Below are positions 9,148 to 55,045 of a DNA stretch of 64,000 bases, piece after piece. A program made the translations under genes and the position numbers. The stretch's first letter is position 1, and the number at the start of each line of letters is the position of its first letter. The notes beneath the pieces were generated by a model. It did no database searches and was not told the origin of the DNA. It saw only the letters and a program-made list of their open reading frames with translations. Source of the stretch: Spirochaetota bacterium (lineage in GTDB: Bacteria > Spirochaetota > UBA6919 > CBDBPB01); the NCBI GenBank assembly GCA_965208615.1, contig CBDBPB010000008.1:78331-142330 (forward strand). The letters run 5' to 3'.

Positions 9148-9288
9148 ATCATAAAAAAAGAGGAGCTATACTCCCCTTAATTTTATAACAAAAATAAATA
9201 TACTTATTAGTCTGACTCAAAATATGGTTGTACCTGACTCAATGTCTGACTGTACCTGACTCAAGGTTTGACTGTACAAGTTTATATG
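9148..9288 (-). repeat. Partial inverted copy of the dispersed non-coding element (segment A), including a 3x22-bp tandem at 9212-9277
   Basis: Reverse complement reads catataaacttgtacagtcaaaccttgagtcagg...ttttgagtcagactaataagtatatttatttttgtt...aaggggagtatagct...ttttttatgat, matching 11508-11603 and the array units. Confidence 0.8.
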
Positions 9289-11257
9289 TATTATCAACCC
9301 TTTTATTTTCATCATCACCCTCTCCATAGGTTGGAGTACCTGTTATGCTTGAATTATTATTATAAATAGCCCCACCTTTGCCTACTTTTTCTTTTCCACT
9401 TTCAATACTACCAGCAATGTTTTTATTAAAAATCACCGTATTATCTAAAGTGGGCTTGCTATTATCACTATTATACATGCCCCCTCCGTATTGCTTAGCC
9501 TCATTGCTATTAAAAGTCACATCTTTTAAAGTGGGAAAGGTTTTATAATTATACATGCCCCCTCCTTTAGTAGCCGTATTACTAGTAAAAGTCACATCTT
9601 TTAAAGTGGGAAAGGTTTTATAATTAGTCATGCCCCCTCCGTGTATAGCCGTATTACTATTAAACTCCACATTTGTTAAAGTGGGAGAGCTATTACCATT
9701 AGCCATGCCCCCTCCGCCGTCATTTGCCGTATTACTAGTAAACTCCACATTTGTTAAAGTGGGAGAGCTATCATAAGCATTAAACATGCCTCCTCCGGCC
9801 TCGGCCGTATTACTAGTAAACTTCACATTTGTTAAAGTGGGAGAGCTATTATTATTAAACATGCCCCCTCCGTACCTATTAGCCGTATTACTAGTAAAAG
9901 TCACATTTGTTAACTTGGGAGAGCTATTATTATTATACATGCCCCCTCCTAAGTCGGCCGTATTACTAGTAAACTCCACATCTTTTAAAGTGGGAGAGCT
10001 CTTCTCATTACCCATGCCCCCTCCGAGTTTGGCCTTATTACTAGTAAACTCCACATTTGTTAAAGTGGGAGAGCTATTATTATTAAGCATGCCCCCTCCG
10101 GCCTCGGCCGTATTAGTAGTAAAAGTCACAGTTGTTAACGTTGGAGAGCTATTATTATTATACATGCCCCCCCCTCCTAACAATGTGGCCGTATTACTAG
10201 TAAACTCCACATTTGTTAAAGTGGGAGAGCTTTTATCCCAATTAGCCATGCCCCCCCCTCCGTACTTTTTTGCTGTATTACTATTAAAAGTCACAGTTGT
10301 TAAAGTGGGAGAGCTATTATTATTAAGCATGCCCCCTCCGGCCTCGGCCGTATTACTAGTAAACTTCACATTTGTTAAAGTGGGAGAGCTATTATTCTCA
10401 TTATACATGCCCCCTCCGATCCAGTTAGCCGTATTACTAGTAAACTCCACAGTTGTTAACGTTGGAGAGCTATTATTATTATACATGCCCCCTCCGAGCA
10501 AGCTAGCCGTATTAGTAGTAAAAGTCACATCTTTTAAAGTGGGAGAGCTCTTCTCATTATACATGCCCCCTCCTAAGTCGGCCGTATTACTAGTAAAAGT
10601 CACAGTTGTTAACGTTGGAGAGCTATTATTATTATACATGCCCCCTCCGATCCAGTTAGCCGTATTAGTAGTAAAAGTCACATCTGTTAAAGTGGGAGAG
10701 CTATTATTATTAAACATTCCCCCTCCCCTATCATGGGGAGAACGACCATTAGCATTACCTTTGGTAATAGTAACCGCCGCTAGCTTTGCTGAGTTATTTA
10801 ACTTTGCTTTGTCTTCTTTATCACCCGGATGATAAAAAACATGATAGACATTATCATTATCACTATCCTCTGTTCCAACATCACCGCTTAGAATAGTCTT
10901 ATATTGTTCAGGATCGTTAGACTCATAAATATTTACACCAGGATAACTGCCAATAACCTCTACACCATTCTTTAAGGCAAAATGCTTATTACGATCACCA
11001 CTACCACCATTTGGATGACTAGTAGGTTTATAAGTTCCTTTTGATACATATACCTTAACAGGTTTTTTACTAGACTTAAACTTTTCTGAGGCTTTATTAA
11101 TAGCCTTTTGTAGATCACTAAAGGCAGTATTCCAGGATTTCCCATTTTTAGTAGTACGCTTTTCACCTTTTTTTAAAGCTTTTACAAAGAATCCATTTAC
11201 TTGTTTGCATTCTATTAATAAAACTAAAATTGCTAAAATAAATAATACTTTTTTCAT
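9239..11257 (-). CDS. Surface (lipo)protein with right-handed beta-helix repeats (Pmp/pectin-lyase-like)
   Basis: Signal peptide ending in Cys (LLIEC); GKSWNTAFSDLQKAI cap; 17 repeats of GGGMxNxxSSPTLxxVxFxxNxA. Confidence 0.85.
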   Translation of the reverse strand: MKKVLFILAILVLLIECKQVNGFFVKALKKGEKRTTKNGKSWNTAFSDLQKAINKASEKFKSSKKPVKVYVSKGTYKPTSHPNGGSGDRNKHFALKNGVEVIGSYPGVNIYESNDPEQYKTILSGDVGTEDSDNDNVYHVFYHPGDKEDKAKLNNSAKLAAVTITKGNANGRSPHDRGGGMFNNNSSPTLTDVTFTTNTANWIGGGMYNNNSSPTLTTVTFTSNTADLGGGMYNEKSSPTLKDVTFTTNTASLLGGGMYNNNSSPTLTTVEFTSNTANWIGGGMYNENNSSPTLTNVKFTSNTAEAGGGMLNNNSSPTLTTVTFNSNTAKKYGGGGMANWDKSSPTLTNVEFTSNTATLLGGGGMYNNNSSPTLTTVTFTTNTAEAGGGMLNNNSSPTLTNVEFTSNKAKLGGGMGNEKSSPTLKDVEFTSNTADLGGGMYNNNSSPKLTNVTFTSNTANRYGGGMFNNNSSPTLTNVKFTSNTAEAGGGMFNAYDSSPTLTNVEFTSNTANDGGGGMANGNSSPTLTNVEFNSNTAIHGGGMTNYKTFPTLKDVTFTSNTATKGGGMYNYKTFPTLKDVTFNSNEAKQYGGGMYNSDNSKPTLDNTVIFNKNIAGSIESGKEKVGKGGAIYNNNSSITGTPTYGEGDDENKRVDNTYKLVQSNLESGTVRH
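9440..10730. repeat. Intragenic tandem array, 17 units of 75-84 bp
   Basis: catgccccctcc...gccgtattactagtaaa...gttaaagtgggagagct recurs about every 75 bp. Confidence 0.95.
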
Positions 11258-11507
11258 AATTCCCCCTATTGTTTTTTTAGCTTAAAACGTTAAGCTCTAA
11301 TAGGCCAACGCATATAAAGCTATATCATTTAAAAATAAGCCCACTATAATGTAATAAATCCCGGGGAAAAGTAAAACTAAAAAAACTTAAATTTACTTTA
11401 TGAGGGGGATAACTTTTAATATTCTCAATTGGCATACCTATACATAATATGTAATAATTTAGTATAACGGATACTTCATCAAGTTTAGGTTGTTGAAAAT
11501 AGACATG

Positions 11508-11998
11508 CATATAAACTTGTACGCTCAGACCTTGAGTTAGGGCTGGTAGGTATATTTATTTTTTGTTAAGGCTAATGTTAGTATAGCTTTTCTTTTTTAT
11601 GATAATTTAGGTTATTTAGAGTGATATTATTTAGTAATTTAGTTATCATTTTATGACAAAGTTATGACAAAGTCTACAAGGTAAAAAGCAAGACATATAA
11701 CGTAAAGGCGGATGTATTTTATATCTCTTTGTGGAACAGGAAAGTTAAAATATTTATGTAAAAGTTATTTTCCTGTGTCAAGCAGGTTATCCCTATATGC
11801 TCTTTAAGTGCTGTTTAAATGCCTTAGTAATGAACACAAAATATCACTTTTTATGCAAGTAGTCATCATTACGGGAGCTATTAAGAATCCCTTACTGAGA
11901 CTAAGAATTATAGACCCTTATTAAGTGTTAACGGATTTGTAGTTCCATAAAGGCGTAGAGCGGATTATTTAAATATTACATGTTGACTTTATATGTAA
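11508..11998 (+). repeat. Dispersed ~490-bp non-coding element, full single copy
   Basis: Aligns by eye (high identity) to 45140-45607. Shared blocks include ggaacaggaaagttaaaatatttatg, tgtgtcaagcaggttatccct and agtaatgaacacaaaatatcactttttatgcaagtagtcatca. Confidence 0.9.
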
Positions 11999-12110
11999 AA
12001 CCTCAAAAAGTATACCTAATCCTCTATGATAAATAACAATCATAAAAAGTAAACTACTAAAACCTTCACTAACTAAATCTATCTAAAATTGTCTTAGAGT
12101 AATTCCTTAT

Positions 12111-44160: not shown

Positions 44161-44371
44161 AAATTGTTAACAATAATTAATAAATCCCTTTTAATTGTCA
44201 AGTTTTTTTAATATTTTCTTTAAAAGAAGCTTTAACATAGAGGCTGGAAATAGTATTATAGTGTATAGCTATTTTTTTTGTAGACGGCAAACATAGTAAA
44301 TTGTTATAAACGCAATAAATTCTTTTTAGTTGTCAAGTTTTTTTTTAATATTTTCTTTAAAAGAAGCTTTA
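44161..44371. repeat. ~74-bp direct repeat (44161-44234 and ~44298-44371) carrying TTGACA on the minus strand
   Basis: aattgtta...aataaat...ttgtcaagttttttt(tt)aatattttctttaaaagaagcttta occurs twice. Confidence 0.85.
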
Positions 44372-44468
44372 ATTATTACTAATTGTTCTAAATAGAGTAG
44401 CTCAAAAGTATTCTAAGGTAATTTATATTTCTAAGACTTAAAAAATATAGATAAAATCTATTTAACAA

Positions 44469-45308
44469 TTTATGACAAAGAGCAAAGTGTAAAGGAATAA
44501 GACATATACGTTCAGGTTTTGAGTCGGACGAGTAAGTATATTTATTTTTGTTAATGTTAAGGGGAGTATAGCTTTTCTTTTTTTGATATTAGTTTATTTA
44601 GAGTGATATTATTTAATAATTTATTTATCATTTTATGACAAAGAGCAAAGTGTAAAGGAATAAGACATATACGTTCAGGTTTTGAGTCGGACGAGTAAGT
44701 ATATTTATTTTTGTCAAGGTTAGTATAGCTTTTCTTTTTTTTGATATTAGTTTATTTAGAGTGATATTATTTAATAATTTATTTATCATTTTATGACAAA
44801 GAGCAAAGTGTAAAGGAATAAGGCATATACGTTCAGGTTTTGAGTCGGACGAGTAAGTATATTTATTTTTGTTAATGTTAGTATAGCTTTTCTTTTTTTT
44901 GATATTAGTTTATTTAGAGTGATATTATTTAATAATTTATTTATCATTTTATGACAAAGAGCAAAGTGTAAAGGAATAAGGCATATACGTTCAGGTTTTG
45001 AGTCGGACGAGTAAGTATATTTATTTTTGTTAAGGTTAGTATAGCTTTTCTTTTTTTGATATTAGTTTATTTAGAGTGATATTATTTAATAATTTATTTA
45101 TCATTTTATGACAAAGAGCAAAGTGTAAAGGAGTAAGACATATACGTTCAGGTTTTGAGTCGGACGAGTAAGTATATTTATTTTTGTCAAGGTTAAGGGG
45201 AGTATAGCTTTTCTTTTTTTTGATATTAGTTTATTTAGAGTGATATTATTTAATAATTTATTTATCATTTTATGACAAAGAGCAAAGTGTAAAGGAATAA
45301 GGCATATA
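44469..45308. repeat. Non-coding tandem array: 5 full units of 157-164 bp plus one partial unit
   Basis: atgacaaagagcaaagtgtaaagga starts at 44472, 44635, 44793, 44951, 45108 and 45272. Confidence 0.97.
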
Positions 45309-45607
45309 ACGTAAAGATAGGCAGGTTTTAGATTTCTTTATGGAACAGGAAAGTTAAAATATTTATGAAAAAGTTATTTTCTTGTGTCAAGCAGGTTATC
45401 CCTTTATGCTCTTTAAGTACTGCTTAAATGCCTCAGTAATGAACACAAAATATCACTTTTTATGCAAGTAGTCATCACTATGAGAGCTATTAAGAATCCC
45501 TTGCTGAGACTGAGAATTATAGACCTTTATTAAGTGATAAGGAATTTGCCCTTCTACAAAAGGATAGAGCGGATTATTGGAATATTCTATATTGACTTTA
45601 TGTGTAA
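45309..45607 (+). repeat. Unique right part (segment C) of the dispersed element, continuous with the array
   Basis: Homologous to 11700-11998. Confidence 0.9.
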
Positions 45608-45720
45608 TTGCATGTCTGAATTAAAAATAATAGAACAGTCTATATCTATAAAAATTCATAAGCTTAAAACGTTTTTACAATAACCTACTAAAACACTTGA
45701 TAACAAAACGGTAAATAGCA

Positions 45721-54746: not shown

Positions 54747-55045
54747 TTATGATAAAACATATAACGCAAGGATAAAGACATTTTGTTTTTTTTGTGGAAA
54801 AGAAAATTAAAATATTGAAGAAAAACTTAATTCCTAATAAGACATATTATTTTAATATGCTTCTCTAATACTGTAAACATAGTTTAACTATTAAAAAATT
54901 TAATTTTTTATAGCTAATACATAATGTCAGCAAGTATTAAGAAACAGTAACTAAAACTAAAAACTACATAATAAATCAAGGGTCATTATCTTATAGTTAT
55001 AGCAAAGACTATATAAGGTCAATTTTATATTCGACCTTAAAGTAA
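54747..55045 (+). repeat. Diverged third copy of the dispersed element (segment C)
   Basis: catataacgcaaggata, tttgtggaaaagaaaattaaaatatt, tattaagaaacagtaactaaaactaaaaacta and tcgaccttaa are colinear with 11695-11998 and 45303-45607. Confidence 0.6.

Follow-up and report, generated by a model that had tools for sequence, protein, structure and literature searches.

What has produced a tandem array of 158-bp units in an intergenic region of a Spirochaetota bacterium, and does the array do anything for its host? The array occupies positions 44466..45308 (+ strand) of a 64,000-nucleotide stretch of contig CBDBPB010000008.1, referred to here as the window (contig C8 coordinate minus 78330 gives the window coordinate), and was analysed together with the rest of the genome (2.46 Mb in 9 contigs, 99.4% complete). 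Taken alone it is an ordinary long-period variable number tandem repeat (VNTR). Set in its genome it belongs to the left arm of a non-coding, modular element approximately 0.75 kb long, present as 40 full-length copies plus fragments, and it is probably a VNTR seeded by microhomology within an immobilised copy of a natural non-autonomous element of the mini-Mu type.

Tandem Repeats Finder reported a single array at window 44455-45308, with a period of 158, 5.3 copies, 95% matches, 2% indels and a score of 1509. Blastn with one unit recovered five full units of 163, 158, 158, 157 and 164 bp and a 43-bp partial unit, exactly the lengths given in the original prediction for this locus, and successive head-to-tail matches abut, confirming that no unique spacers separate the units. 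A 32-base unit core occurred five times in the window and not once in 100 shuffles. Alignment of the units reproduced every variant listed previously. At one site AATAAGAC is found in units 1 and 2, AATAAGGC in units 3, 4 and 6 and AGTAAGAC in unit 5, and at a second site TTAATGTT is found in units 1 and 3, TCAAGGTT in units 2 and 5 and TTAAGGTT in unit 4. An AAGGGG insert is confined to units 1 and 5, and a T-run has seven residues in units 1 and 4 and eight in units 2, 3 and 5. All four combinations occur for AAGAC/AAGGC with AATGTT/AAGGTT, and likewise for the AAGGGG insert with TTAA/TCAA, indicating that array units have either swapped segments or mutated recurrently. The array had been described as non-coding, and this is consistent with a period that is no multiple of 3 and with a unit-long minus-strand open reading frame (ORF) of 53-55 amino acids that is interrupted in two of the five units (1 and 4). 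The start motif of this ORF has 48 matches in the genome, mostly in element copies, in which the ORF varies from 3 to 56 amino acids.

Short-read unitigs break within the array and no listed contig spans it, as might be seen had the assembler inflated a single unit. Such an artefact is extremely improbable, however, as the five units differ at several sites and form a consistent mosaic, a unit-internal unitig has approximately three times the depth of the unique flanks (17.4 compared with 5.2-6.2), and 18 other arrays of this kind were assembled at other loci of the 9-contig, 99.4%-complete genome.

The array runs directly into a segment of about 300 bp, and the same segment recurs with one unit at window ~11488-12079, both as originally reported. 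This conserved non-coding core, termed T and defined as a blastn family (45309..45607, + strand), gave 53 blastn matches genome-wide, 40 of them of at least 270 bp, and a T profile (nhmmer) gave 63 matches in all, including diverged pieces and some array units. All-against-all comparison of the 40 loci revealed that the right edge is sharp, approximately 350-400 bp past the point where T begins, and that the left arm varies from 200 to 1600 bp. With the single-copy locus C4:388260-389028 as a ruler, module order was colinear at every locus, reading M1-M1b-M2-M3-T-R1-R2. The array was therefore built from the left part of a recurring element, as the original prediction had it. The copy bearing it spans window 44374-45709. 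Its left end, module M1 (44374..44465, + strand; canonical positions 1-~80), contains two GTTCTA-type sites and a terminal TG mutated to TA, TATTACTAATTGTTCT; the array of five full units and the 43-bp partial unit corresponds to canonical positions ~157-299; and T is followed by a right arm made up of an R1 variant and the start of R2 (45608..45709, + strand), which ends before the phage-type terminus. Self-comparison showed the element to be the only high-copy dispersed repeat of the genome, of which element and arrays together make up roughly 2%, a rough estimate and not a computed value. It has no conserved ORF, and its 40 full-length copies lie among unrelated genes. A protein-level search (tblastx) with the core returned only other element fragments, and descent of the core from an extant gene was rejected on this ground. 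A lipoprotein-like mini-ORF in the core (MKKLFSC...) was also discarded, being broken by ATGTAA in copy A and variable across the family.

Comparison of the units with single-copy relatives showed that at the unit junction, CATATA|CGTTCAGG, the end of M3 meets an internal position of M2, each unit reading from the second half of M3 through M2 into the first half of M3. A 'catata' microhomology had been proposed at this junction. The junction itself was recovered, but the microhomology is imperfect, CAT(A/G)TA, with the left breakpoint preceded by CATGTA or CTTGTA in single-copy relatives, and the exact CATATAA at 11508, formerly taken as the breakpoint, sits 8 bases upstream of the real one. 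The array may thus have begun as one 158-bp duplication between these imperfect microhomologies, by slippage or template switch. RecA-type unequal crossing-over and gene conversion would then have expanded it and shuffled its variants, possibly with other copies as conversion donors, the same variants being present elsewhere in the family. The suggested likeness to an array plus leader proved to be one of layout only: there are no spacers, arrays of other periods also lie to the left (n=15) or right (n=3) of element copies, and the only match to a CRISPR-repeat model scored 18.6 bits against a gathering score of 45.

The nature of the element is indicated by its ends. A 35.3 kb prophage at C7:424829-460177 splits one T copy, leaving ruler positions 407-609 at C7:424627-424829 and 200-413 at C7:460178-460398, each piece on the minus strand. 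Its junctions, AAACAGCAC|TGTTATTAAACGTTCTAA and TTAGAACGTTCGCTAACA|CAGCACTTAAAG, define 5'-TG...CA-3' ends flanked by a perfect 6-bp duplication, CAGCAC. The prophage carries a Mu F-like head gene (Phage_Mu_F), one end encodes a sigma factor, a 282-residue MuB-like transposition ATPase (phrog_296, E 1.8e-26) and a 532-residue transposase (phrog_310, E 3.4e-35), and tail and baseplate genes lie at the opposite end; it is a Mu/B3-like transposable prophage. The rve domain of the transposase reached 23.4 bits, below the cut-off, when the protein was scanned alone, and a genome search with PF00665 at E<=0.001 was blank. Each prophage end contains two copies of AAACGTTCTAA 24 bp apart. The right ends of the element, read inward, have the form TGTTAACAAACGTTTTAGCAAATATAACAAAAAACGTTCTA, and 11 of 13 regular-expression matches of this type are identical to either prophage end at 41-44 of 55 bases. 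The right end scores 25 against the prophage ends, compared with a mean of 4.2-4.8 (standard deviation 2.1-2.3, maximum 15-17) for 4000 random 50-mers from the genome. The left ends, TGTTACTAATTGTTCTAG...AAAAGTATTCTAAG, have in common with the prophage ends a TGTTA tip and two GTTCTA-type sites of matching spacing. As judged by these alignments, the ends of the element are shown to be homologous to those of the prophage and to lie in inverted orientation.

Mu generates a target duplication of 5 bp, and the duplication here, unlike that of Mu, appears to be of 6 bp. In the nine copies with both ends placeable, 27 of 54 flank positions match in the 6-bp register; permuted flanks gave 19.7 +/- 2.6, with 10 of 1835 permutations reaching 27, and all 15 other registers gave 12-20. 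This statistical signal suggests that the element copies carry decayed 6-bp target duplications. The original prediction had offered three readings of the array, namely a processed multi-unit RNA array, a tunable protein-binding array and an integration or rolling-circle footprint, and the integration footprint comes closest because of the transposon-type ends, homologous to those of the prophage, and the decayed duplications. Its rolling-circle half did not survive. A rolling-circle or IS200/IS605 footprint was rejected, with no matches to PF01797 (Y1) and with inverted ends of the DDE, TG...CA type; the search with PF04986 (Y2) was blank and its control failed. Searches for other transposases and reverse transcriptases with PF01797, PF07282, PF01548, PF01609 and PF00078 gave no genome match at E<=0.001, with working controls; PF04986, PF02914 and PF09299 also gave none, but their controls matched nowhere and these blanks say little. 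The paired 11-bp phage-end motif was found at seven viral loci, all of them, as far as match spacing alone tells, tandem 48-bp repeats unrelated to phage ends.

The interior of the element has a different source. A gene on the minus strand at window 9239..11258 encodes a Pmp-like beta-helix lipoprotein of 672 amino acids with GGGMYNNNSSPTLTNVTFTSNTA-type repeats of about 25 residues (PF02415 Chlam_PMP, E 7.2e-8). The M2 part of the array unit matches the region just 3' of its stop codon (blastn, 77% over 75 bp, E 2.5e-13). A terminator scan located an intact intrinsic terminator, AAGGGGAGTATAGCTCCTCTT plus a T-run, behind this gene at window 9178-9158 (minus strand). In the alignment with the 3' end of the gene, the terminator site of the array units reads (AAGGGG)AGTATAGCTTTTC followed by T7-8, and the fossil terminator of unit 1, AAGGGGAGTATAGCTTTTC plus a T-run, was placed at 44558..44583 (+ strand) by alignment to the 3' end of the gene, copy A and the canonical copy. 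It follows from the unit and gene-tail alignment that the AAGGGG indel is the 5' half of a ruined terminator stem and T7/T8 its T-run. Module M2, present in every unit, is thus shown to be the fossil 3' untranslated region (UTR) and intrinsic terminator of a Pmp-like lipoprotein gene. A corresponding origin of M1, as the fossil 5' UTR or start of such a gene, was rejected: its local-alignment score was matched by 143, 49, 153, 8 and 130 of 500 shuffles for the five paralogues compared.

The genome contains about 20 Pmp-like paralogues. At 10 of the 40 element loci the element adjoins the 5' end of one and is oriented divergently from it; the remaining 30 have unrelated housekeeping neighbours, such as Hsp70, RibBA, LysRS, CysRS, FtsH, FlgG and thioredoxin. 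The presence of Pmp-like remains raises the possibility that the element provides shared flanking homology for exchange of Pmp-like genes, in the manner of the upstream and downstream homology sequences of relapsing-fever Borrelia, with arrays as by-products of repeated conversion. The origin of M2 in a gene tail fits this, as do the 10 Pmp-adjoining loci and the 318-bp units at C1:406506-407780, which still translate to 43 residues of the C-terminal part of a Pmp-like protein (58% identity, E 2e-5), and copies close to one another resemble each other more than distant ones do, in keeping with gene conversion. However, no Pmp-like gene is near the other 30 loci, no intact Pmp-like gene is followed by the core in gene-to-core orientation, the fossil runs backwards relative to the adjacent gene, and phage-type ends and target duplications would be left unexplained, making a role as recombination substrate very unlikely.

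The element is better accounted for as a mini-Mu-type unit with ends resembling those of the resident Mu/B3-like prophage and an interior of captured host DNA, consisting of the last codons, 3' UTR and terminator of a Pmp-like gene followed by the 300-bp core. It would have spread in trans through the transposase of this prophage or a related one. A look for similar arrays elsewhere in the genome had been suggested as a check, and such arrays are present. Counting arrays with a period of at least 60 and at least 90% matches, and treating as linked those within 400 bp of a full-length T, 19 of 26 long-period arrays are linked to the element. The linked arrays are spread over 18 of the 40 loci (16 arrays to the left of T, 3 to its right) and have periods of 74, 96, 109, 110, 137, 144, 146, 156, 158, 165, 169, 175, 201, 203, 208, 222, 263 and 318 bp. 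The amplified stretch varies by locus, with (M1)n in 15 and 12 copies, (M1-M1b-M2)n, (M2)n and (M2-M3)n all represented, and at least 13 junction types can be distinguished from the maps and units. The array at C3:160883-161365 (165 bp x 2.9) amplifies the same stretch as the window array, canonical ~157-299. At least four junction types (units of 201, 169, 110 and 318 bp) have the terminal TGTTAC as the exact beginning of the unit, and the 74-bp unit type begins one base inside the terminus. For several of these sister arrays a second route may apply, in which one element copy integrated within another already in place and homologous recombination subsequently deleted the distal part that had become duplicated. 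This would leave [1..p][1..end], with a junction between an internal point and the exact left terminus, and the product could be expanded by unequal crossing-over. The three right-side arrays, at C2:149964-150783 (175 bp x 4.7), C2:113903-114151 (109 bp x 2.3) and C4:382547-382924 (96 bp x 3.9), indicate that the right arm can also be amplified.

Several observations weigh against this account. Neither the window array nor the 144-146-bp arrays begin at the terminus, and self-insertion hence leaves them unexplained; Mu also displays target immunity, which argues against frequent self-insertion. That so many of the arrays (19 of 26) cluster in the left arm may require more than neutral slippage. 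Similarity of the left ends to the prophage ends is modest, with scores of 10-13, about 3 standard deviations above random. A phage-type right end is kept at just 10 of the 40 full-length loci and a left-type end at 24, and the duplication signal is statistical only, no single copy having a perfect 6-bp duplication. The ends are just 75-80% identical to those of the resident prophage, so that a lost relative may have mobilised the elements. Lastly, the middle of T is the best-kept part of the element (94.6% mean pairwise identity, with arms at 75-90%), which could mean that a function has been overlooked. Strong selection on the core was nevertheless rejected, since mean pairwise identity is 88-95% in T and 85-90% in the left arm, a mild difference only; that of the right arm is 75-79%.

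Within the family the window copy stands apart. Mean pairwise identity of T is 88.7%, and some pairs from different loci, mostly neighbours on the same contig, are 98.4-100% identical, reflecting either recent movement or gene conversion. The array-bearing core is the most isolated copy, its nearest relative being 90.7% identical. Its left tip reads TATTAC instead of TGTTAC, its right arm stops before the phage-type terminus and no right-type end was found there; the window copy is a relic without intact ends. Its array units are 94-100% alike (BLAST), whereas no other copy exceeds 90.7% identity to its core, which dates the array after the insertion.

Is the array then transcribed into something useful? 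Processing into RNAs of ~158 nucleotides, or a core acting as an RNA gene whose variable 5' part is the array, might be entertained because the middle third of the core is the best conserved part of the element, at 94.6%, and promoter-like sites point towards the core. Rfam, however, contained no family matching at gathering threshold or at E<=10. Neither two units nor the 300-bp segment fold better than shuffled sequence on either strand (z -0.04, +0.96, +1.12 and -0.57), and over 374 columns the RNAalifold consensus of the 40 copies reaches just -20 to -21 kcal/mol, compensatory pairs being almost absent. No terminator was predicted in the array, and unit indels fall in the sole stem-like feature. 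The processed multi-unit RNA array of the original prediction found no support in these data, and a non-coding RNA of either design is highly doubtful.

A second functional possibility is that unit number sets the expression of the divergent neighbours, and of Pmp-like genes at sister loci, so that the array would act as a tunable contingency locus. Each unit contains TATCAT-TTT-ATGACA, a near-palindrome, together with a promoter-like site, TTGATA-N18-TATTAT, whose -10 is TG-extended; this site is located in the first unit at 44583..44612 (+ strand) and again at 44741, 44899, 45056 and 45220, in each case a consensus match only. Promoter-like sites number 23 in 1.7 kb compared with 11.4 +/- 3.4 in shuffles, an excess attributable to the repetition. 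The divergent arrangement at the 5' ends of Pmp-like genes at 10 of 40 loci, in a set of ~20 paralogues, and the heavy concentration of arrays in this one element are consistent with regulation, and BOX elements can stimulate or inhibit adjacent genes (PMC3049150). Against it stand the 30 loci beside unrelated housekeeping genes and a downstream gene co-oriented with the element at just 24 of 40 loci. Different loci amplify different modules, so that no single motif is consistently multiplied, and the fossil terminators are broken, with a mutated or half-deleted stem, none being predicted in the array. The palindrome, which lies in M3 and was considered as a phage operator, has no match within 3 mismatches in 9 kb at the early end of the prophage. 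A regulatory array is therefore rather unlikely. A role of the element as leader of a regulon was rejected because the neighbouring genes are functionally unrelated, and orientation relative to local GC skew, with 14 copies co-oriented and 23 anti-oriented, was not significant. The array most likely has no dedicated function. It may alter expression of the divergent genes as a side effect, through spacing, the number of fossil terminators or promoter-like sites, and the sequence features that leave room for such an effect are the better-kept middle of T, the near-palindrome, the promoter-like site and the concentration of arrays in the left arm.

The element might, alternatively, belong to a living mini-Mu system, in which phage-type left ends act as decoys or packaging starts on prophage induction and arrays are by-products or tuners of this interplay, generated by aberrant end-directed transposition and not by plain slippage. 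Approximately 58 phage-type left ends are distributed among 24 loci, and some of them stand in tandem, in the 74-bp arrays of 15 and 12 copies at C4:91068-92178 and C4:131028-131917, in which the unit is the phage-type left end of the element; judged by their units, they are arrays of putative transposase-binding ends and might serve as decoys or packaging starts. Such a system is unlikely to be operating. Were it so, the ends would sap the phage transposase, as a host defence or as a parasite of the phage, or else the phage would package and transfer adjoining host DNA at high frequency, a 'mini-Muduction' in nature. Isolated ends were also observed: a solo phage-type right end at C4:114761, with 44 of 55 bases identical to the prophage ends and not beside any core copy, and four solo left-type ends away from cores at C1:400133, C4:148079, C4:148424 and C9:17072. 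Such ends may have been left by other elements or by events that were aborted.

The preferred interpretation, an array that grew in a relic mini-Mu-type element, can be compared with known systems. Mini-Mu units need only L and R ends in cis, with MuA and MuB supplied in trans (PMC3145075). The element resembles them in its non-coding cargo between inverted phage ends with 5'-TG...CA-3' termini, in repeated transposase-type sites at each end (two at fixed spacing, compared with three in Mu), in a transposase and AAA+ partner encoded elsewhere, here by a resident transposable prophage, and in what appears to be a short target duplication. Mini-Mu units are laboratory constructs, however, and the present family is a natural one of ~40 copies; further, its ends are 75-80% identical to those of the resident phage, a counterpart of the enhancer was not detected, and one end is missing from most copies.

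In architecture the closest system is the BOX element of Streptococcus pneumoniae, composed of boxA, a variable number of boxB and boxC, and thought to be a MITE (a miniature transposable element with inverted repeats) moved in trans, with changes in array length ascribed to slippage, unequal crossing-over or excision and reinsertion (PMC3049150). Both are dispersed composite intergenic repeats with fixed outer modules and an inner module in variable tandem number, a likeness of layout only with no sequence relationship. The units here, at 74-318 bp, are far longer than boxB, junctions and amplified segments differ by locus, a stable RNA structure is formed by BOX but not by this element, and a phage takes the place of the insertion sequence (IS) as partner. 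As a locus, the window array resembles the Wolbachia arrays VNTR-141 and VNTR-105, which are long-period, non-coding and intergenic, with periods of 105-141 bp, 98-99% period identity and internal indels, their copy-number change being ascribed to slipped-strand mispairing (PMC3287509). Those are two single loci, however, with hairpins and internal repeats in their periods and without transposon ends. Bacterial interspersed mosaic elements, which are mosaic clusters of repetitive extragenic palindromic (REP) sequences tied to RAYT/Y1 transposases (PMC3333891, PMC2817692), are similarly intergenic mosaics of few modules served by a transposase acting in trans; REPs, in contrast, are GC-rich palindromes of 20-40 bp handled by HUH Y1 enzymes, and this genome has no Y1 match, the element having DDE-type ends. 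Full-text literature searches, in a collection mostly without subscription journals, brought up no description of a natural MITE family derived from Mu, which does not prove its absence.

None of 40 related genomes carries the element, two of them giving just 24-32-base matches (E 5e-4 to 7e-4). A conserved 21-mer of the element and the right-end pattern each had no matches in genome contigs, the same 21-mer had one chance match in metagenome contigs (42.5% G+C, alignment limited to the 21 bases), and a search of plasmids gave no match. In sequencing run X3, from a second sample of the same study, one short contig is identical to part of an array unit (window 45158-45253) before continuing into different sequence, and a core fragment corresponding to window 45450-45600 has 11 differences. 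From these pieces, a related strain carrying the element family probably exists.

The window contains two further pieces of the family: a second copy at 11488..12079 (+ strand), composed of M2-M3-T-R, which has just one unit, lacks both M1 and the right terminus and is divergent to the Pmp-like gene; and a third, strongly diverged T-like fragment at 54754..54958 (+ strand; C8:133084-133288; nhmmer E 8.4e-6). The array had been placed between a gene run including TPR (tetratricopeptide repeat), dprA and topA genes and a radical S-adenosylmethionine (SAM) gene. Pfam supports DprA and TopA, which lie further left; the TPR-like gene, the immediate left neighbour, and the radical SAM-like gene on the right were recovered only below threshold (19.3 vs 27.9 bits and 26.1 vs 29.5 bits, respectively). 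Between the TPR-like gene and the element there is a 59-bp direct repeat unique to this locus, with copies at window 44179-44235 and 44314-44372 that are 91.5% identical and 135 bp apart, the first containing a promoter-like site, TTGACA-N17-AATTAT, on the minus strand facing the gene. Elsewhere in the genome, genes beside element copies encode large ankyrin-repeat proteins of 510 (L052:2342-3871) and 399 amino acids (L082:2785-3981) and a WD40 propeller of 567 amino acids (L056:6253-7953), eukaryote-like repeat proteins that are possibly a sign of life in association with a host. At C7:28084-28946 lies an unrelated tandem repeat (42 bp x 20.5, 96% matches), which probably encodes a 14-residue repeat.

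The usual source to which MITEs are traced is an insertion sequence. The setting here is an unusual one, a high-copy non-coding element with transposable-phage ends in a genome that is blank for the five IS and reverse transcriptase families tested with working controls. A single cause explains several loci of this genome at which a conserved block adjoins a tandem array. If a phage transposase moves the elements, a temperate phage can seed its host genome with repeats, and these would bring fossil terminators and promoter-like sites into intergenic regions, including those upstream of half of the surface-lipoprotein paralogues. The family would then offer a natural setting in which to study end recognition of the Mu type, target immunity and the transfer of host DNA by phages.

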